A DNA stretch of 60,487 bases from a virus. Its lineage: Duplodnaviria; Heunggongvirae; Uroviricota; Caudoviricetes. Below are positions 2,521-30,595 of the stretch, piece after piece (within the stretch, counting starts at the first letter, position 1; every line of letters starts with the position of its first letter). The stretch lies in IMG/VR virus record IMGVR_UViG_3300018481_000002, positions 87,199 through 147,685 of that record; one strand, given 5' to 3'. A program made the translations under genes and the position numbers. The notes beneath the pieces were generated by a model. It ran no database searches. It was given only the letters and a program-made list of their open reading frames with translations, and was not told where the DNA came from.

Positions 2521-3143
2521 GCGAGATGGTGCGGGTTGCGATGGAGTGGCCCAAGGAAGTTAAGGAGACCGTCCGAGAGAAGGTGGGCCCCCGAGGCCTC
2601 ACCGAGTTCGTCCTCGACGCCGTCCATGATCGTCTGAACGGATCCGCGCTGGACTCCAAGGAGGAGATCCGCGAAGCCCGAGACGTTGCGCAGAAGCTGG
2701 CCGACCTGGTCATGAGCGACTCGGTCGACAAGAGTCTGACCTTGACCAGCATGCACCGACCCAGATGGCTAGATACCAACTCCTGGCCAGTCCCCGAGGT
2801 CGAGCCTGAGCCCGAGCCTGTGGCACCGGAGCCTGATCCTGTCCTTCCCGAGAAGCCAACTACTGAGGACCGTCTTGGCCATCAGCCAGACGACTTCTTC
2901 AAGAAGGTCATGAGGGCCGGGAAGCTGAACGACGGCGAAATCGACTACGTGCGAGACCATTTGAAGCCCGCATCTGACCTGGAAGCACAGGAAGCCATCG
3001 AGGTCATGGATGAGGTTGTCGCCATCGGTGAAGAGGCTCAACTGGCGCTGGATCCCGTCGCTGTCTTCGGAAAGCACGCTGAAGATCTCTGCCCCAGCTG
3101 CGGCGAACCGCGTGTGGACGGCGAGTGTTGGACTTGCGACTGA
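2517..3143 (+). CDS. Hypothetical protein, RHH-like N-terminus and C-terminal Zn ribbon
   Basis: VRVAMEWPKEVKETVR...LTEFVLDAV (ribbon-helix-helix-like); CPSC...CWTC. Confidence 0.7.
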   Translation: MSEMVRVAMEWPKEVKETVREKVGPRGLTEFVLDAVHDRLNGSALDSKEEIREARDVAQKLADLVMSDSVDKSLTLTSMHRPRWLDTNSWPVPEVEPEPEPVAPEPDPVLPEKPTTEDRLGHQPDDFFKKVMRAGKLNDGEIDYVRDHLKPASDLEAQEAIEVMDEVVAIGEEAQLALDPVAVFGKHAEDLCPSCGEPRVDGECWTCD

Positions 3144-7510: not shown

Positions 7511-7572
7511 CAGGGCGCGCCGTACCGAACAAACGTCTGGATCGTTCTACTCTCAGAGCGGCAGGAGGACGG

Positions 7573-7809
7573 ATGCGCGTATCGAAGTACCCACAGCAGC
7601 GAGACGATGTTCTCGCGGCCATCAGGGATGCACAGCTTCGACATGGACTCGCTCCGTCAGTGCGGGACCTGGCGGCTCAGTTCGGAGTTGGTGTCGCCAC
7701 GATGCACTCCTACTTGCAGAAGCTTGCTGAAGAAGGGGTAGTGGAGTGGTCAAAGGGCAGGCACCGTTCCTTGAGATGCACCCTTCAGGGTTTCCAGGAG
7801 CAGAAGTAG
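7573..7809 (+). CDS. LexA-type winged-helix DNA-binding domain only (no peptidase domain)
   Basis: VLAAIRDAQLRHGLAPSVRDLAAQFGVGVATMHSYLQKLAEEGVVEWSKGRHRSL matches the LexA N-terminal pattern; 78 aa. Confidence 0.85.
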   Translation: MRVSKYPQQRDDVLAAIRDAQLRHGLAPSVRDLAAQFGVGVATMHSYLQKLAEEGVVEWSKGRHRSLRCTLQGFQEQK

Positions 7810-11262: not shown

Positions 11263-11442
11263 ATGGACGAGTACGAAGCGCTTGACGCTATCCAGGCTCT
11301 ACGCCAAGAGGCGGTTCTTGATCGGTTGAAGGAGGAGGACCCGCGTCTCTACGACTACAAGAACGGGCTCATCGACGGGCTGGACAAGGCATGGCTGGCT
11401 GTCTTCCAGGCGACGCGGAGGAAGCTTGTAAATGGTGCCTGA
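11263..11442 (+). CDS. Hypothetical protein
   Basis: 59-aa ORF with GAGG RBS, followed by a terminator. Confidence 0.65.
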   Translation: MDEYEALDAIQALRQEAVLDRLKEEDPRLYDYKNGLIDGLDKAWLAVFQATRRKLVNGA

Positions 11443-11447
11443 ACCAG

Positions 11448-11490
11448 TGAGGCCCCGGTCCTAGGTATGAGCTAGGGCCGGGGCCTCAAA
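11448..11490 (+). terminator. Terminator hairpin
   Basis: GAGGCCCCGGTCCTAG...CTAGGGCCGGGGCCTC. Confidence 0.65.
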
Positions 11491-11956
11491 CCTCCCCGAT
11501 AAGCGCTACGGGGTGGTTAGGTGGAAGGGAGGATTGACTACCTCCAAGGGGCTCCACGTTGTCAGGAGTTCGATTACCAACGTTACCCCACCTACGACAC
11601 GGCGCTACCCGATCTCGGATCAACAGACGGTCTGGCTACCGCCCCAGTTGAGCCTGGGCCGACCCTCAGCACTTGCAGTCGGGTCCCTACTCCTCTGTTC
11701 GAGGGAGGGTTTTCCGGTCCAGGGATGATCCTGTCGCAGACAATCCGTTACCTGCACGCCACGCGGTTCAACGTGTAGGCCCGGTTTCTGTCACTTCCCA
11801 GTTCGCCCGTCGGCTCCCTGTTGAAGAGAACAGTAGGGCGAACCTCGGTTCGAGGTCAAGCCGGTAGCCGAAATTTGTTCGGGCGAGCCTCCGCTGAGGC
11901 GTAACCAGAGCATGAAGACTGCATCTAGCAGGCATCTGGACCGAAGGAGAGAGCAA

Positions 11957-12349
11957 ATGGCTACCGTGAAGCTCATCGAAACGAACCCTCCCCCGGAGGG
12001 TCGTCAGCCGCGCGGGCTGACTCCTCTGGACACCTCACAGGTCCACTACGCCATCGGGCGGTCCATCGATCAGGTCCGTGACGAGATCGATGACGCCTTC
12101 GCAGCCATGAAGACCTTCTTCAACCGTGATCCAGACGAGATCCTCCGACTGTCCTCTGGACATAGCGCCCGGCTCAGTGAGCTGGCCGTGAAGATCCAAC
12201 GCATCGAGGACTTCCAGCGGGAGTGGAAGAACATCCGGGTCCGCGAGATCGAACCGGCCATCGCGGAGCTTGAGCGGCAACTTCGGACGGCCAGCCGTTT
12301 GCACGCGATCCGAGAGTTGGACTGGAAGATGGAAACGGGGGAGCGATGA
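11957..12349 (+). CDS. Hypothetical protein
   Basis: AAGGAG RBS; 130-aa helical ORF. Confidence 0.75.
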   Translation: MATVKLIETNPPPEGRQPRGLTPLDTSQVHYAIGRSIDQVRDEIDDAFAAMKTFFNRDPDEILRLSSGHSARLSELAVKIQRIEDFQREWKNIRVREIEPAIAELERQLRTASRLHAIRELDWKMETGER

Positions 12350-18617: not shown

Positions 18618-19544
18618 ATGAGTACTGATGTGAAGAAGATGGTTGACTCCTTCGGACGGACCAAGGAGGAGAACAAGGACCGCCTCGCGATCATGGAGGC
18701 GGCCAACGAGGAGGCTCGGGAGCACTGGGATGACCCCCAGTACCGCGCCGAGTTCGCTGCGGACCTGACGGAGTCGATCCTTGAGGGGTTCGACTACGAG
18801 ACGCTTGTCGATCAGTGGATCGAGACTGAGCGCACCGACTTCAACGGACGAATCTTCATCCGTGAGGCTGGCGGTCTCAAGGCGTTCTTCATGGCCCGTG
18901 GTGGCTACATCGAGGCGTCCGAGCTGACTGCTGAGCTGTCCGAGGTTCCTCGCGACATGCTCGGTGTTCACGTGTGGGAGTTCGAGGACAAGTTCCTCAC
19001 GAACTTCGCCGAGTCTGCTCAGACTCTTCGTGATCTCTCGATTCGCCGGATGGACGCGGAAGTTAACCGCCGCATCCACACGGTCTTGAAGGAGGCCCTC
19101 GCGGCTTCCTACACGACCACGGCTGCTGGTATCTCGCAGGCTGCGGTTGACGCCGCCATCGCGCGCGTCCAGGACGAGTCGGAGTCTGGCGAGGTGGTCA
19201 TCGTTGGCCGCCCGACCGTTGTGAACAAGCTGGCTGGCTTCACTGGTTTCGGCAACGAGACTCTTGAGGAGATCCGGCGCAAGGGCATGTTCGGCGTCTA
19301 CCACGGCGCTTCGATCATCACCCTGAAGAACTTCAAGGACGAGGATGGAGTCGCTTACATCCCGAACAACGAGCTGTGGATCATGGCTCGCGACACGGGC
19401 AAGTTCGCGTTCTTCGGCGGCCTGAAGAGCAAGGAATTCATGGAGCTTGACAACTGGTACTGGCACTACCTCGCGCGGCGGGACACCGGCATCATGGTGC
19501 ACCACCCCGAGCGTGCCCACCTGCTGATCGACTCCAGCATCTGA
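18618..19544 (+). CDS. Major capsid protein
   Basis: 308 aa, strong codon bias, GAGGAGG RBS, followed by a strong terminator. Confidence 0.85.
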   Translation: MSTDVKKMVDSFGRTKEENKDRLAIMEAANEEAREHWDDPQYRAEFAADLTESILEGFDYETLVDQWIETERTDFNGRIFIREAGGLKAFFMARGGYIEASELTAELSEVPRDMLGVHVWEFEDKFLTNFAESAQTLRDLSIRRMDAEVNRRIHTVLKEALAASYTTTAAGISQAAVDAAIARVQDESESGEVVIVGRPTVVNKLAGFTGFGNETLEEIRRKGMFGVYHGASIITLKNFKDEDGVAYIPNNELWIMARDTGKFAFFGGLKSKEFMELDNWYWHYLARRDTGIMVHHPERAHLLIDSSI

Positions 19545-19564
19545 GGCTAATCCCCTCGGCATGA

Positions 19565-19601
19565 GAAAGGCCCCCGGTCCTCACGGATCGGGGGCCTTTT
19601 C
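19565..19601. terminator. Bidirectional terminator (MCP operon and leftward GGY-NN array)
   Basis: GAAAGGCCCCCGG...CGGGGGCCTTTT. Confidence 0.85.
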
Positions 19602-19641
19602 CTTGCGCTACCGTTCGCACGCCTCTTGGGCTACCGAACGC

Positions 19642-19733
19642 ACACCTTGCCCTACCTAGCCAGGCCGAACCCGGCCCTGCCTAGCACTGCCTTGCCCAAC
19701 CTAGCCATTGCCTAGCCTGGACTTGCCGAGACC
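19642..19733 (-). ncRNA. GGY-NN pentamer array D (candidate guide RNA)
   Basis: Minus strand: ggtct(c) ggcaa gtcca ggcta ggcaa(t) ggcta ggttg ggcaa ggcag tgcta ggcag ggccg ggttc ggcct ggcta ggtag ggcaa ggtgt. Confidence 0.8.
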
Positions 19734-19736
19734 GAC

Positions 19737-19780
19737 AGAGTATCGAACACTTGAACGAAGGCCAAGTGTCGGGGTACTGT
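19737..19780. promoter_or_regulatory. Divergent overlapping promoters with an SOS-like box
   Basis: Plus: TTGAAC(19751)-18-TACTGT; minus: TTGGCC(19765)-17-TACTCT; box TCGAACACTTGAACGA at 19743-19758. Confidence 0.7.
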
Positions 19781-19785
19781 TCCTT

Positions 19786-19905
19786 CGCTTGGCGTAGCTA
19801 GGCGGGGCTTGGCAGGGCCTGGCACCGCATGGCTTGGCAGAACAAGGCTCGGCCTGGAGGGGCTCGGCTAGGCCCGGCAGGGTGGGGCAAGGCTAGGCAG
19901 GGTAT
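19786..19905 (+). ncRNA. GGY-NN pentamer array A (candidate guide RNA)
   Basis: 24 units in perfect 5-nt register; 19/24 start with GGY and 23/24 have a pyrimidine at position 3. Confidence 0.85.
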
Positions 19906-19919
19906 AACTAGATCAGCGA

Positions 19920-19996
<77 letters not shown>

Positions 19997-20002
19997 AGAC
20001 GA

Positions 20003-20047
20003 GGCGAGGCCGGGCAGGGCCTGGCACCGTGGGGCACGGCAAGGCAG
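20003..20047 (+). ncRNA. GGY-NN pentamer array B (candidate guide RNA)
   Basis: ggcga ggccg ggcag ggcct ggcac cgtgg ggcac ggcaa ggcag, starting 6 nt after the tRNA CCA. Confidence 0.75.
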
Positions 20048-20107
20048 GGGTTCCCCACCCGCCCTAACAGACGACGCTCCTATCTCGACTACCTAGTAGG
20101 AGGCGAC

Positions 20108-20314
20108 ATGAGGGGACTCTTCCCTGAGAAGGACCTGCCCAGAGCGTTGGGTGTGAAGGTCTTCGGTGAGCCCAAGGCGCAGGCTCAGATCAACAGCCCG
20201 GACAAGGCGGGTCCGACCATCGCCAGGGACAAGACGTGCTGGTGTGGCCGTCCGTATCCGCATGACTGGCTGGGCCAGGAGGACGGTGCCGCGCATCCGA
20301 GGTACCCGGACTGA
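20108..20314 (+). CDS. Small hypothetical protein (CWC...H motif)
   Basis: GGAGG RBS; 68 aa. Confidence 0.7.
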   Translation: MRGLFPEKDLPRALGVKVFGEPKAQAQINSPDKAGPTIARDKTCWCGRPYPHDWLGQEDGAAHPRYPD

Positions 20315-20320
20315 TTTCCC

Positions 20321-20358
20321 TCGAACACTTGCACGAGGTGGTTTGTAGCGTCTACAGT
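20321..20358 (+). promoter_or_regulatory. Promoter with an SOS-like box upstream of array C and the RAMP gene
   Basis: TCGAACACTTGCACGA overlapping TTGCAC-18-TACAGT. Confidence 0.7.
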
Positions 20359-20369
20359 GCACACACCAT

Positions 20370-20431
20370 GGCATGGCAGAGGCTCGGCTAAGCGCGGCAC
20401 TGCACGGCCAGGCAGAGGCACGGCAAGGCAA
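20370..20431 (+). ncRNA. GGY-NN pentamer array C (in the 5' leader of the RAMP gene)
   Basis: ggcat ggcag(a) ggctc ggcta agcgc ggcac tgcac ggcca ggcag(a) ggcac ggcaa ggcaa. Confidence 0.8.
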
Positions 20432-20462
20432 CAACCACACATGAAGCCATTGGAGGCTCAAC

Positions 20463-21044
20463 TTGAAGGTAACCATCGAGATTGACGGCACCCAGCCGCT
20501 TCTCATGCACGCAGACACCCTCGCGGACCCGCTGGACCCGCTGACCAAGGAGTTCAAGCGACTCTCCGGGAAGCGGTCCAAGACCGACGAGGACCACGAG
20601 GCCATGGCGGAGAAGGAGTTCCTCGCCAGCCTCTACCTCGATGACGGCGGCGAGATCTGCATCCCCGCAGCCAACATCAAGAAGTGCCTCATCGAGGGAG
20701 GCCGCATCACCAAGTCCGGGGCCAAGATCGAACGTGGCCTCACGCTCCTGGGCATCGACTTCGTCCTGAAGCACACCGGTCCGGCACTCCCGGCTGACCT
20801 GTACCAGGACCCGAAGTTCGTGGACAGGCGTTCCGTGAAGGTCGGCACCGCCCGCACCATGCGTGTCCGTCCCCGCTTCAACGACTGGTCCCTGCGAGTG
20901 GAGTGCGACATCGACCCCGCCGTGTGTTCCATCGATGACCTGAAGGACATCGCGACCAACGCCGGTTCCCTGGTGGGTCTCGGTGACCACCGCAAGATCG
21001 GCGGATACGGACGTTTCGTGGCGAAGGTGAGGAAGAACCCGTGA
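20463..21044 (+). CDS. Stand-alone RAMP / Cas7-like RNA-binding protein
   Basis: Beta1 VTIEIDGTQPLLMH, IPAANIKKCL helix and Gly-rich loop GLGDHRKIGGYGRF; GGAGG RBS, TTG start. Confidence 0.85.
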   Translation: MKVTIEIDGTQPLLMHADTLADPLDPLTKEFKRLSGKRSKTDEDHEAMAEKEFLASLYLDDGGEICIPAANIKKCLIEGGRITKSGAKIERGLTLLGIDFVLKHTGPALPADLYQDPKFVDRRSVKVGTARTMRVRPRFNDWSLRVECDIDPAVCSIDDLKDIATNAGSLVGLGDHRKIGGYGRFVAKVRKNP

Positions 21045-21553
21045 GGCCGTTCGCGCCGAAGGGTGAGCAGCCTGAGTGGCGGATGCTCTACGACCTGGTT
21101 ACGGGTTCGGCTGTAGACACGGTGTTCCCGTACGACGACTTCGACCGGGCGCTTGGTCGGGACTTCCGGGAGAACCGGACCCCCCTGGCCCGTGTACAGA
21201 AGGAACTCCTGCGGGAGGACAAGCGGGTCCTGGTCAACGTACGCGGCGTCGGGTACCGGATCGCTCAGGCTCGGGAGCACGGCGAACTGGCTGTGGGTCA
21301 GCGGCAGCGTGCCCGTCGTGCCGTGGACAAGGGTGTTCAGATCGTTGCTGGCGCTGACCAGTCCTCTCTGACCCCGAAGGAACGGCAGCGGCTGACGGAG
21401 ATCGAGGTCAACCTGCGTGCTCAGGCGAACATGCTTCGCCGGACTGAGGCTCGGGTGGCCGTTTTGGAGAAGTCCGCGAAGCATTCGGACGACCGTCTGG
21501 ACATGCTGCTGGCTGAACTGAAGCGGAAGGGCTTGGTCGAGACGATCGACTAA
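21041..21553 (+). CDS. Winged-helix-like plus coiled-coil protein coupled to the RAMP gene
   Basis: GTGA overlap; wing motif NVRGVGYRI; C-terminal heptads. Confidence 0.75.
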   Translation: MRPFAPKGEQPEWRMLYDLVTGSAVDTVFPYDDFDRALGRDFRENRTPLARVQKELLREDKRVLVNVRGVGYRIAQAREHGELAVGQRQRARRAVDKGVQIVAGADQSSLTPKERQRLTEIEVNLRAQANMLRRTEARVAVLEKSAKHSDDRLDMLLAELKRKGLVETID

Positions 21554-21562
21554 CCTGAGACC

Positions 21563-21656
21563 GAGGGTCTGTGCCCACGGCAGTAGACGGAACCCGAGCT
21601 TGCTACGGTCTTGCTCGGTGTCCGCTGCCGGGGGGCTCACGTGGGCACAGACCCTC
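21563..21656 (+). ncRNA. Long stem-loop RNA candidate
   Basis: Perfect 17-bp inverted repeat GAGGGTCTGTGCCCACG/CGTGGGCACAGACCCTC enclosing further nested stems. Confidence 0.55.
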
Positions 21657-21660
21657 ACTC

Positions 21661-21739
21661 GGGGCAGGATGGGTTCGACAGCGACGTAAGTCCGCATGCG
21701 GGACGCCGCTGGACCAGGGTTCGACTCCCTGCTGCTCCA
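21661..21739 (+). ncRNA. Minimal tmRNA-like RNA (tRNA-like domain only)
   Basis: 5' GGGGCAG-GATGGGTTCGAC; 3' GAC-CAGGG-TTCGACT-CCCTG-CTGCTCC-A; G3:U70 pair; no tag ORF or pseudoknots. Confidence 0.8.
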
Positions 21740-21895
21740 CGGGAGGAGATGCCCGAGAAGGAACCTGGTGTCCAGTCTGGGTCGCTCCCACGCTGAAACA
21801 CGCTGAACCAGGATCCATCCAGAGGGAAAGGCGCAGGTTCTAGACTCCCTGTGCTGGATACGCTGGGGGTCTACTGGCCAGCTCTCCTCTCTCCT

Positions 21896-21968
21896 GCGCC
21901 TTTAGCTCAATTGGTAGAGCAGCTGGCTCTTAACCAGCGTGTTCGGGGTTCGAGTCCCCGAAGGCGTA
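21896..21968 (+). tRNA. tRNA-Lys (CTT)
   Basis: Canonical cloverleaf; anticodon loop CTCTTAA. Confidence 0.95.
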
Positions 21969-21969
21969 C

Positions 21970-22104
21970 GTGAACGAAATCCAGAAGTTTTGGCATCGAT
22001 GGTTCGGGATCGGATGGCCCGACCCTGAGGACATCCACGCCTTGGAACGTGACCTAAGATCCGTTGCCTGGCCAGAAGACGACGACCAGAGGCCCACCGA
22101 CTGA
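21970..22104 (+). CDS. Possible small protein (44 aa)
   Basis: Read manually: MNEIQKFWHRWFGIGWPDPED...; no clear RBS. Confidence 0.35.
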   Translation: MNEIQKFWHRWFGIGWPDPEDIHALERDLRSVAWPEDDDQRPTD

Positions 22105-22116
22105 ACGGAGTCACTC

Positions 22117-22524
22117 ATGGGCTCCGTACTTGTATCCAGCACTTGTCACTACTGCGGGGACAAGGCCACCACTGACGACCACGTGGTTCCCCGGTCCCTG
22201 CTGCCCAAGCCCCAGTCCCTCCTGCCGTACTGGTTCCGCGCCATGAACGTAGTCCCGGCCTGCGCCCCCTGTAACGGTGCCAAGGCCAACCACCGCTCCG
22301 ACTGCCACTGCACCCAGTGCGTACGCGCCTGGGGCTCCGCTGCCGCGCTCTACGGCATCGTTGAGCCTGAGCCGGTGTCCGTGTTGGAACTGCGCCGCGA
22401 ACTGGTCCGTGTGCAGAACCGCAACCGCAAGCGGCAGCGAAACAACGAGAGCAGACGAAGGCGTGTGCGCGAGGAATACAAGAGACGGTTCGGGTCCTAC
22501 CCGCCCTCTCGCGCGCGCCAGTAG
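22117..22524 (+). CDS. HNH endonuclease
   Basis: CHYC...DHVVP...NVVPACAPCNGAK; the 3' end overlaps tRNA-Arg. Confidence 0.88.
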   Translation: MGSVLVSSTCHYCGDKATTDDHVVPRSLLPKPQSLLPYWFRAMNVVPACAPCNGAKANHRSDCHCTQCVRAWGSAAALYGIVEPEPVSVLELRRELVRVQNRNRKRQRNNESRRRRVREEYKRRFGSYPPSRARQ

Positions 22525-22587
22525 CTCAGCGGACAGAGCAACCGCCTTCTAAGCGGATGGTCGCGGGTTCAATCCCCGCCTGGCGTA
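22515..22587 (+). tRNA. tRNA-Arg (TCT)
   Basis: Canonical cloverleaf; anticodon loop CTTCTAA. Confidence 0.93.
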
Positions 22588-22793
22588 CCTCCGGGCTCGA
22601 TCATCACAGACTCCCAACGACCTGCCTTGATCAGCCCTACCCGTCGCTTGCGGATCTCTCCCTCTTCGTTCTCGTACTCCTCTGTGAGCACGATGTTGCC
22701 GTCCTCGTCTTCGCGCCAACCATCGGCCTCACCGAAGACGTCGATGGCCCCTTCGCTCAGATCGTTCGCTGTGTAGCGCACCCGGACTCCCAT
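22569..22793 (-). CDS. Small acidic hypothetical protein
   Basis: 74-aa ORF convergent on tRNA-Arg. Confidence 0.6.
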   Translation of the reverse strand: MGVRVRYTANDLSEGAIDVFGEADGWREDEDGNIVLTEEYENEEGEIRKRRVGLIKAGRWESVMIEPGGTPGGD

Positions 22794-26995: not shown

Positions 26996-28528
26996 ATGGC
27001 GATCAAGGCAGGACAGATCCTGCACGTGATGAACCAGTTCGTCGTCGACCGCATTCAGACGGCAGGCCCCGGCGACCTGAACATCCCGCAGGAGAAGGTC
27101 TACGAGCTGGGTAACTACCAGTCGGTGGGCATCGTTCGCGACGTTCCGGACCTGTCTTTCAACCTTGAGTGTCTCGACGTAGACACTGAGGTTGAGGCGC
27201 TGCTCGTTGGCCGGACGGATCCCTACGGGGACACGACCAGCACGAAGTACGAGCTGGCCCTGAACAAGGCCGTCGACATCGTCAGCCCGTGGAAGACGCC
27301 CTATGGGGAGTTCGCTGCGGTCAACGGTGTGGCTGTCCCGGGCCTGGCCCTGGAGAGCGCGTCCTACCGTTACGGGCTTCAGGAGAATGCGGGAGAGACC
27401 TTCACCCTCAACGGTGACGCGATCTACTACACCCCTGGACACCCGTGGCAGGACGTTTTTGTCGGCGACGGTTCGACTGTCGCTTACGCGTTCGACAACG
27501 GTCCGGCGCTTCTGTACTCCGAGGGTGGCACGAGCTTCTACGCTCTGTCGGTCTCGGTGAATGGTGTGCGTTTGACTCAGATCCCGCGTGCGGACTTGGC
27601 GGCTGCGACTACGGCTGGTGACACTGAGGTGTACGCACCGCAGACCACGGCTACCGCTGGTATCGAGTTTGCGATTGCTCCGGCTCTCAACGCGGTCATC
27701 AGCGTTGTCTACGCTTCGGCGGTCGACGGTGACTACCCGCAGACTGGGGTTACTCCGTACGGCACGGGTACTGGCCACCTCACTCACCAGAGTGTGGCGG
27801 TCAAGCCTGCGGCTATCCGGGGTAAGGACATCGACGTCTACTTTGCGACGTTGAGTGCTGTTGGTGGCGGTGTCACCAACAAGGCGCTGACGTCCAACGT
27901 GGCGACGATCACCACTTCGACTTCGCACGGTCTCACGACTGGCGACCTGGTTGTGGTGGCCATCGGTGACGCGGTGTTTGACGGCACCTACACGGTGGCT
28001 TCGACGCCGACCGGTACCACGTTCACTTACGCCAGGACCAACGCGAATGTCACTTCGACGGCTGCGACTGGTACTGCGAGTGAGTCGATCGAATCTCGTT
28101 GGCCCGACGTTCAGTCGGCCACCGTCGAGTGGCGGGTCACCCTGGAGGAGGACTACGAGTTCGGTAACGCTCGCGCGGTCTCGCGTGAGGCGACCGATGT
28201 TCCGGCTGTGACCGGGTCCATCGAGATCCGTCCTCGGTCCGTGGAGGCGTTCTTCGCGCGTCTGCGGCAGATCACGGGTGTTGCTGCTGGCCAGGTCATC
28301 GGCCCGCAGTCCTCGGTTGTTGGTGCCCTTCGTATCGAGCTCCGCAACCCGGAGTCCGGTGGTTCCACCGCTGTCGCGGCTGGTACCGTGCTGAAGACGC
28401 ACTACATCCCGGATGCTCGCTTCACGATCCCTGGCTACTCTGGCCAGGTTCAGCAGAAGCTGAATGTTACGGTCAATTTTGAGTCTGACGGTGGCGTTCT
28501 GGAGGTCTTCAAGGGCCCCCGAGCCTGA
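26996..28528 (+). CDS. Major tail (tube) protein with inserted accessory domains
   Basis: 510 aa, strong codon bias, followed by a terminator; internal ATITTSTSHGLTTGDLVVV...FDGTYTV...TTFTY module. Confidence 0.8.
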   Translation: MAIKAGQILHVMNQFVVDRIQTAGPGDLNIPQEKVYELGNYQSVGIVRDVPDLSFNLECLDVDTEVEALLVGRTDPYGDTTSTKYELALNKAVDIVSPWKTPYGEFAAVNGVAVPGLALESASYRYGLQENAGETFTLNGDAIYYTPGHPWQDVFVGDGSTVAYAFDNGPALLYSEGGTSFYALSVSVNGVRLTQIPRADLAAATTAGDTEVYAPQTTATAGIEFAIAPALNAVISVVYASAVDGDYPQTGVTPYGTGTGHLTHQSVAVKPAAIRGKDIDVYFATLSAVGGGVTNKALTSNVATITTSTSHGLTTGDLVVVAIGDAVFDGTYTVASTPTGTTFTYARTNANVTSTAATGTASESIESRWPDVQSATVEWRVTLEEDYEFGNARAVSREATDVPAVTGSIEIRPRSVEAFFARLRQITGVAAGQVIGPQSSVVGALRIELRNPESGGSTAVAAGTVLKTHYIPDARFTIPGYSGQVQQKLNVTVNFESDGGVLEVFKGPRA

Positions 28529-30148: not shown

Positions 30149-30235
30149 ATGCCTCGCTTCGCCTCTGCATCGCCAAGCCTTGCCTACGCCGTGGCACGCC
30201 TTGCCAAACCTTGCCGGGCCGGGCCACGCAATGTC
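30149..30235 (-). ncRNA. GGY-NN pentamer array E (orphan candidate guide RNA)
   Basis: gacat tgcgt ggccc ggccc ggcaa ggttt ggcaa ggcgt gccac ggcgt(a) ggcaa ggctt ggcga tgcag(a) ggcga agcga ggcat; fills the space exactly between a stop codon and a terminator. Confidence 0.8.
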
Positions 30236-30595
30236 TCATCGCACGTTGCTGTACAGGGAGGTCCCTGCGACAAACTGCCCCTTCCAGTTCCAGTTGTTCA
30301 TGACCCAGGACTGGAACTCGTGGTCATCCAGTTCGACGTGGTCCTCGACCTCCATCTCCAACCTGGCGATCACCAGGTCGTAGGAGTCGAGGTAGTGCTT
30401 CGGCTTCGGGAGTTCGCTGAGCGGCGTCAAGGTGATGACACCCTCCTTGGTGGCCAGGTCTGAGGCCTTCTTCAGAGCCTTGGTGGCCTCCTTCTTCCAG
30501 ACCTTCTTGGCCTTCTCGAACTCCTTCTTGTGCTCTTCGCGGTTCGTCTTCAGCTTCGTCAACAGGTCGTCTTTGCTGACCTTGGTTAGATCCAC
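30236..30595 (-). CDS. Conserved phage hypothetical protein
   Basis: LLTKLKTNREEHKKEF...YDLVIARLEM...ELDDHEFQSWVMNNWNWK; GAGGAGG RBS. Confidence 0.8.
   Translation of the reverse strand: MDLTKVSKDDLLTKLKTNREEHKKEFEKAKKVWKKEATKALKKASDLATKEGVITLTPLSELPKPKHYLDSYDLVIARLEMEVEDHVELDDHEFQSWVMNNWNWKGQFVAGTSLYSNVR

Follow-up and report, generated by a model that had tools for sequence, protein, structure and literature searches.

A candidate SOS-box-like operator between putative divergent guide RNA genes in a type-II-like VIPR locus of an uncultured phage

IMG/VR record IMGVR_UViG_3300018481_000002 is a 147,685-bp phage genome with direct terminal repeats and a G+C content of 61.6%, of which we analyzed bases 87,199-147,685 (60,487 nucleotides, here referred to as the window; coordinates refer to the window unless marked “genome”). 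Just beyond the major capsid gene, two arrays of NN-GGY pentamers lie back to back, array D on the minus strand and array A on the plus strand. We think it fairly likely that they are divergent vrRNA (guide RNA) genes of a VIPR locus that share one SOS-box-like operator, with a twin of it at the effector (vipr) promoter, and stand under LexA-type control. That the silencer is thereby tied to the host SOS response, with guides and effector off until DNA damage occurs, is a more tentative proposal.

VIPR was described in 2026 as a CRISPR-related DNA silencer (bioRxiv 10.64898/2026.04.26.720920,.720927, 2026.10.15.759431). According to these preprints, it consists of a lone RAMP protein (Vipr), usually a vap gene (the type II form, vap1, is predicted to be DNA-binding), and vrRNAs of 9-16 YNNGG repeats plus a tail. 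One Vipr protomer sits on each repeat and hides GGY, and NN pairs with DNA, every third base being skipped. The preprints recognize vrRNAs by at least four YNNGG units in intergenic DNA by vipr, and targets by an NN match of at least 80% under this 1-nt-skip rule. They are silent on how vrRNA and vipr expression is controlled and make no mention of LexA, SOS, or vrRNA promoter architecture.

A sequence-only reading of this DNA had described the two arrays as flanking a spacer of about 50 bp that holds a pair of promoter hexamers on each strand, and we could confirm this base for base. The elements at the center of the argument are as follows.

19743-19758: SOS-box-like operator TCGAACACTTGAACGA (TCGAAC-ACTT-GAACGA), matching tCGAAC-N4-GNNCGa
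19751-19780, plus strand: putative promoter P_A, with -35 TTGAAC at 19751-19756, an 18-nt spacer, -10 TACTGT at 19775-19780, and a predicted transcription start site at ~19787
19737-19765, minus strand: putative promoter P_D, with -35 TTGGCC from 19765 to 19760, a 17-nt spacer from 19759 to 19743, -10 TACTCT from 19742 to 19737, and a predicted start site at ~19730-19732
19784-19903, plus strand: array A, the repeat tract of vrRNA A, with 23 NN-GGY units and a degenerate first one, ending AAGGC TAGGC AGGGT
19644-19734, minus strand: array D, the repeat tract of vrRNA D, with 17 NN-GGY units and a degenerate first one, ending AGGGC AAGGT
20321-20358, plus strand: putative promoter P_C/P_vipr, with a second box TCGAACACTTGCACGA at 20321-20336 over its -35 (TTGCAC, 20329-20334), an 18-nt spacer, and -10 TACAGT at 20353-20358

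The two promoters interlock, the -35 of each falling in the spacer of the other. The claim that a single box overlaps both also holds, since the operator spans the P_A -35 and takes up all but 1 nt of the P_D spacer. Repeats of array A begin 4-8 nt past the P_A -10 (a degenerate TTCGC at 19784 and a first clean TTGGC at 19789), and the first GGY unit of array D begins 3-7 nt past the P_D -10 (CGGTC from 19734 to 19730, TCGGC from 19729 to 19725). Such promoter-like sites, of a loose actinobacterial sigma70 (HrdB/SigA) type, are rare. The pattern TTGNNN-N16-18-TANNNT is found 15 times on both strands of the 147,685 bp, a density of 5e-5 per nt per strand that gives P ~1e-3 for any 25-nt window, and for five of these sites a GGY array (A, C, D, E2, and E4) begins 3-10 nt further on. 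The minus strand of the whole genome has just three matches, P_D among them.

The operator has a twin. As had been noted from the sequence, the promoter of the RAMP gene (vipr) carries a near-identical box, and P_A and P_C agree at 15 of 16 bases in the box and 5 of 6 in the -10 but share only about 2 of the 16 spacer bases that separate them. Both boxes have every specified base of the LexA consensus tCGAAC-N4-GNNCGa, which was derived from Streptomyces venezuelae by chromatin immunoprecipitation sequencing and surface plasmon resonance (PMC9380542). This consensus has four matches in the window vs. 0.28 expected, a number reached in 0 of 100 shuffles, and a narrower form, CGAACA-N3-G[AC]ACG, also has four matches (1963, 2273, 19744, and 20322; 0.13 expected), all of them intergenic. 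Of the 15 promoter-like sites, five are overlapped by a box (four boxes in all), where 0.07 would be expected. The proposal that the two arrays and the RAMP gene are coregulated is plausible: one box lies over both P_A and P_D, and it is found again at P_vipr, at further promoter-like sites of this phage and, as its core, ahead of vipr in the nearest relative.

These same data bear on the possibility that there is no operator and that the 16-mer is an extended -35 of a recently duplicated promoter (P_A and P_C), its likeness to an SOS box being chance and the vrRNAs constitutive or early. The box does contain the -35 hexamer in both of these promoters, and other VIPR loci do without it. However, it fills the spacer in P_D, in the promoter-like site at 1957 (P_1957), and in a minus-strand site running from 11859 to 11830, and this position within the spacers of three promoters argues against a mere extended -35; the enrichment statistics speak against coincidence. 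The only close VIPR relative (L004, a 1,076-bp sequence that starts inside the tRNA and encodes a Vipr 86% identical) points the same way. Its vipr-promoter box, TCGAACTATTGCTCGG, differs only at the N4, NN, and last positions, so that free positions have changed but the TCGAAC half ahead of the -35 has not; G, CG, and the -10 TACAGT are kept too. We therefore regard a chance extended -35 as improbable.

Boxes also lie outside the VIPR locus. The perfect palindromic form CGAAC-N4-GTTCG (CGAACCTCGGTTCG, 11839-11852) occupies the spacer of TTGACC-18-TACTGT, the minus-strand site from 11859 to 11830. It is located in a 470-bp gap (11443-11911) that holds no convincing open reading frame (ORF) and is bordered by a terminase-like gene and the late gene that comes next; Rfam gave no significant match at 11350-12000, and the element may be an SOS-controlled non-coding RNA. 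An 89-aa gene (1991-2260) is flanked by two boxes, one in the site at 1957-1984, where it fills the spacer of TTGCAT-16-TATGCT just before the start codon, and the other on the minus strand of the next intergenic region (2272-2287). Among relatives, the tRNA cluster of L052 is preceded by a promoter-like site with a CGAACA-TAG-GAACG box, and L083 and L084 have a CGAACA half-site within a promoter spacer. An exact search for the box in IMG/VR returned 41 matches, a chance level, with none beside an array, and the canonical CGAAC-N4-GTTCG is absent from 238 kb of relatives.

Judged from the sequence, the protein that binds the operator is most likely host LexA. Functional S. venezuelae sites, including those of prophage genes induced ~500-fold, typically have a strong left half, TCGAACA, and a right half that is weaker (PMC9380542), and the operator here has this form too. 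A less likely binder is a phage-encoded winged-helix protein of 78 aa (7573-7809, plus strand) that lacks a cleavage domain; the operator would then serve a phage timing or immunity circuit with no DNA-damage response. Its best Pfam match is LexA_DNA_bind (32.6 bits, above the cutoff), no Peptidase_S24 domain is present anywhere in the genome, a CGAACA half-site lies ~45 nt upstream of its gene (at 7525), and the four intergenic boxes (CGAACA-YYT-GMACG) resemble each other more than the LexA consensus demands. Yet the assignment is weak, with GntR scoring 29.6 bits and winged helix-turn-helix structures in the PDB matching at E ~0.002-0.03. Moreover, the protein is a monomeric domain without an evident dimerization part, and the boxes fit host LexA perfectly as well. 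A phage-encoded reader of the operator thus appears unlikely.

In the reading that we favor, the locus would work as follows. A and D would be separate vrRNA genes transcribed by the host housekeeping RNA polymerase from start sites ~56 bp apart. Transcription from P_D would yield a vrRNA D of ~170 nt that runs into its own hairpin tail and then into the capsid hairpin terminator. vrRNA A, of ~130 nt, would run into a tRNA-Met whose maturation frees its 3' end, with the transcript continuing through array B. The paralogous promoter P_C would drive array C, vipr, and vap. By homology to the Vipr of Escherichia phage SUSP1, Vipr protomers would coat the GGY repeats and present NN for 1-nt-skip pairing with DNA. 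A LexA-type dimer on the boxes would shut P_A, P_D, and the vipr promoter together, occluding both P_A and P_D from 19743-19758, and DNA damage or loss of the repressor would switch on guides and effector at once.

Membership in the VIPR family carries the identification of the arrays as guides. The stretch 19559-21553 reads, with fair confidence, as a complete type-II-like VIPR locus in the variable region 3' of the capsid gene, in the order vrRNA D, vrRNA A, tRNA-Met, vrRNA B, a 68-aa ORF, vrRNA C, vipr, and vap. The parts beyond the divergent pair are listed here.

19559-19606, both strands: G+C-rich hairpin past the capsid gene (inverted repeat I3), called as a terminator on the plus strand and forming an 11-bp stem in the minus-strand fold
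19607-19643, minus strand: vrRNA D 3' tail, made of 23 nt imperfectly duplicated in tandem (TRF period 23), with a hairpin CGUUCGG...CGAACGG
19920-19996, plus strand: tRNA-Met (CAU), 16 nt past array A and directly before array B (ARAGORN; Rfam tRNA, 65.5 bits)
20001-20050, plus strand: array B, 10 units
20108-20314, plus strand: small Cys-containing ORF of 68 aa between arrays B and C, without a Pfam or PHROG match
20368-20429, plus strand: array C in the vipr leader, 12 units, running into the vipr ribosome-binding site
20463-21044, plus strand: vipr, encoding a lone RAMP protein of 193 aa predicted to bind GGY repeats (match to PDB 36pp_D)
21041-21553, plus strand: vap1-like accessory gene, 170 aa, overlapping the vipr stop codon

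The arrays had been called guide-like from their letters, and this is borne out: their NN-GGY repeat is the VIPR vrRNA repeat, and the adjoining RAMP protein is a full-length homologue of SUSP1 Vipr. In a phmmer comparison with PDB 36pp_D, residues 3-189 aligned with 4-189 at 41% identity (E=9.1e-38). H17, R138, D177, and R179, the SUSP1 residues that touch G1, G2, and Y3, are kept as H16, R136, D175, and R177, and SUSP1 W178 is replaced by His. By this match the protein would be a minimal RAMP having the RRM core, the G-loop, and the thumb that define Vipr, and it has 113 homologues; a search of IMG/VR by Vipr peptide patterns found none. The vap1-like protein is 57% and 50% identical to the products of post-vipr genes at loci L006 and L005, 30% identical to LittleE gp33 and MakoManhole gp77 (“DNA binding protein”), and 29% identical to its Felixounavirus Alf5 counterpart, with E values from 3.5e-66 to 7.6e-9 (Alf5). 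A gene of this kind is kept beside vipr at six other loci. By its Vipr, repeat, and vap features, the locus belongs to the published VIPR family.

Ten period-5 arrays are present in the genome (A to D, one at 30183-30237, and five at genome 77147-78448), vs. 0-1 in shuffled genomes. Over their 173 units the logo is N N G(0.87) G(0.97) Y(0.96), the published vrRNA repeat. GGY is perfect in 19 of 23 units of array A, with 11 distinct NN dinucleotides, and in 15 of 17 units of array D, which has nine distinct NN dinucleotides and one 6-nt unit. Nearly all ten arrays end in AAGGC followed by A/G-R-G-G, apparently a common 3' end mark; A, C, D, and the array at 30183-30237 show a looser variant, with one unit between or with AAGGT or AAGGC last. 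The AAGGC unit inside array A points to a pair of guides, with 12 and 11 units, and such units in the long arrays (A, E1, and E2) may mark boundaries between several guides. Small Cys-rich ORFs with CxxC-type motifs directly follow GGY arrays at 20108-20314 and at genome ~77315 and ~77637, so these arrays would double as 5' leaders of the ORFs.

That the arrays are discrete RNA genes, as first suggested, is supported by rare promoters at the right distance, by the tail and terminator of D, by the tRNA after A, and by the common end units. Array D does run toward the bidirectional capsid gene terminator, through a 37-nt hairpin tail and then the hairpin at 19559-19606, which is followed by TTTTCCTT on the plus strand and TTTCTC on the minus strand. 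The hairpin would terminate the capsid gene transcript on the plus strand and probably vrRNA D on the minus strand; minus-strand RNA from 19735 to 19545 folds at -96.8 kcal/mol (z = -4.3). The 3' end of array A is probably set by RNase P cleavage at the tRNA-Met (19920), and array B would be part of the same transcript. What follows the repeats is a hairpin and terminator in D, the tRNA in A, and the vipr ribosome-binding site in C; a SUSP1-type pseudoknot tail was not recognizable by inspection. A Rfam scan of 19400-22700 yielded tRNAs and a mini-tmRNA only.

Array D could instead have arisen when a plus-strand array was duplicated in inverted orientation, and could now be decaying, either silent or transcribed by chance, with fortuitous minus-strand hexamers. 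We consider this very unlikely. No related locus has an opposite-strand array, D has a 6-nt unit and degenerate first units, and its target search was negative; on the other side, perfect GGY is kept in most of its units, it has an AAGGY end mark, a structured tail, and a terminator, and its promoter, 3-7 nt ahead of the first unit, is one of three on the minus strand in 148 kb. To the idea that the arrays act as DNA, as phased protein sites or structural DNA around the promoter, we give almost no credence. Their 5-bp phasing corresponds to half a helical turn, and on either side of the spacer they make up an imperfect inverted repeat of 51 nt. But this inverted repeat is one motif on opposite strands, the GGY orientation is strand specific and always past a promoter, vipr lies 560 bp downstream of array A, and the published biochemistry of identical repeats is RNA based.

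Further candidates were set aside. Arrays A and D were considered as paired antisense RNAs, but both transcripts are GGY-rich, and the DNA shows an inverted repeat simply because each strand bears this motif. Readings of the arrays as DNA iterons or as leader sites for TRAP-like RNA binding were dropped because the Vipr match and the VIPR preprints explain the repeat.

For a target search, guides were written as NNx strings under the 1-nt-skip rule. Array A decodes as TT GT TA GG TT AG CT AC AT TT AG AA TC CT GG TC TA CC AG GG AA TA AG and array D as TC AA CA TA AT TA TG AA AG TA AG CG TC CT TA AG AA. Shuffling the order of the units gave matches to A and D as good as the real guides did, both within the phage genome itself and across 270 kb of relatives. 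When IMG/VR, GTDB genomes, and JGI metagenomes were scanned with exact seeds of 9-10 units, the only matches were chance ones of seed length, in DNA of 32-47% G+C. As a check of the decoding, the orphan array at 30183-30237 has 19 of 24 NN matches, in codon register, at 28430-28492, a result that is borderline in a shuffle control.

Several observations weigh against divergent vrRNA genes under a common SOS-box-like operator. Neither a box nor an opposite-strand array is found in MakoManhole, LittleE, prophiBWHA-1, Trine, or the metagenomic loci with 65% Vipr identity, and no orthologue of the D/A spacer was found in more than 30 capsid relatives or in L004. The overlapping P_A/P_D pair and the proposed SOS-like control are thus lineage specific, because distant VIPR loci have co-oriented arrays only and no box. 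A scan with the Escherichia coli consensus (threshold 9/12) finds no promoter here; it is the looser form TTGNNN/TANNNT of actinobacteria alone that the hexamers match, and so the promoter calls rest on that form, on rarity, and on placement. In P_A and P_C the box overlaps the -35, so its conservation could partly reflect promoter function. The LexA specificity of the host is assumed. The scans described above gave no DNA target for A or D. Finally, the 23 units of array A, like the 17 of D, exceed the published 9-16.

The surrounding genome informs the choice of host and life style. The major capsid gene (18618-19544, PF27364/YonB-type) has hundreds of homologues of 66-90% identity in soil metagenomes, and the host is probably an actinobacterium because one of these homologues sits on a Nonomuraea-binned contig. 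A tyrosine recombinase gene outside the window (genome 16083-16598, minus strand; Phage_integrase, 99 bits) may mean that the phage is temperate, or the enzyme may be used for dimer resolution; a lysogenic state, in which LexA control would matter, is thus possible. Of the relatives whose capsid genes are 66-90% identical, more than 30 carry other cargo past that gene and no VIPR. The region is a cargo hot spot in these relatives, holding tRNAs, Lsr2, HNH, and Endo VII genes, or small ORFs (L007, L008, L051-L071, and L083-L094).

The value of the finding lies in this regulatory architecture, which we put forward as a hypothesis. Within a 30-bp core, a pair of guide RNAs would have both of their promoters and a single operator, with a paralogous operator-promoter for the effector, which offers a compact, testable model of vrRNA and vipr control. 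The VIPR preprints describe no opposite-strand vrRNA with its own terminator, no overlapping divergent vrRNA promoters, no tRNA-delimited guides, and no operator common to guides and effector. The locus also extends type-II-like VIPR to large uncultured actinophages. If host LexA binds, RNA-guided warfare between phages would be linked to the same DNA-damage response by which its likely targets are induced: the signal that wakes rival prophages and satellites would bring up guides and effector just as these competitors begin replication. VIPR would thereby gain its first described regulatory logic, and guide RNA genes their first example of LexA control. If the box is a promoter element only, the finding shrinks to one more VIPR locus.

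Compared with the type II VIPR of SUSP1 and Felixounavirus, the locus has the same lone Vipr RAMP of ~190-200 aa, a vap1-like gene directly after it, and GGY/NN vrRNAs upstream and elsewhere in the locus, one of them in the vipr leader; in Felixounavirus Alf5, vrRNAs are likewise preceded by a sigma70-type promoter. It differs from the SUSP1 type in its opposite-strand vrRNA gene, its back-to-back overlapping vrRNA promoters, and its SOS-box-like operator, as well as in the AAGGC-ARGG end, the tRNA after A, and the hairpin and terminator after D. SUSP1 infects Escherichia, whereas the host here is probably an actinobacterium.

Cultured actinophages (Gordonia phages MakoManhole and Trine, Mycobacterium phages LittleE and prophiBWHA-1) encode a vap homologue 26-30% identical, with GGY arrays flanking vipr-vap; the Vipr of MakoManhole is 47% identical, and an array of LittleE follows a promoter TTGCGC-17-TACGGT. 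In contrast to the locus described here, every array in these phages is co-oriented with vipr, and CGAAC-N4-GNNCG is absent near arrays and vipr, the one such box in Trine lying 430 bp inside the next gene. In MakoManhole (L077, PQ184807), each vrRNA array is followed by an identical 41-nt tRNA-like minihelix of acceptor stem and T-arm (1651-1691, 2984-3024, and 3102-3142), which suggests that tRNA-processing enzymes may cut guides out, in parallel to the tRNA-Met between A and B. In LittleE (L079, NC_042322), the GGY arrays after TTGCGC-17-TACGGT lie at 2170-2374 under the annotated coding sequence gp35, on the opposite strand, and gp35 is probably a misannotation of vrRNA genes.

The operator itself resembles LexA sites in S. 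venezuelae promoters in every specified base and in the placement of the box over core promoter elements (PMC9380542). Actinobacterial LexA promoters differ from it in that the box here is in a phage genome ahead of non-coding guide RNA genes, and one box would serve two divergent promoters. The SOS box of Mycobacterium tuberculosis is TCGAAC-N4-GTTCGA. Divergent, overlapping promoter pairs with one common repressor site provide joint control of both transcripts; what sets the P_A/P_D pair apart from them is that both products would be guide RNAs of one effector and that the -35s lie in each other's spacers.

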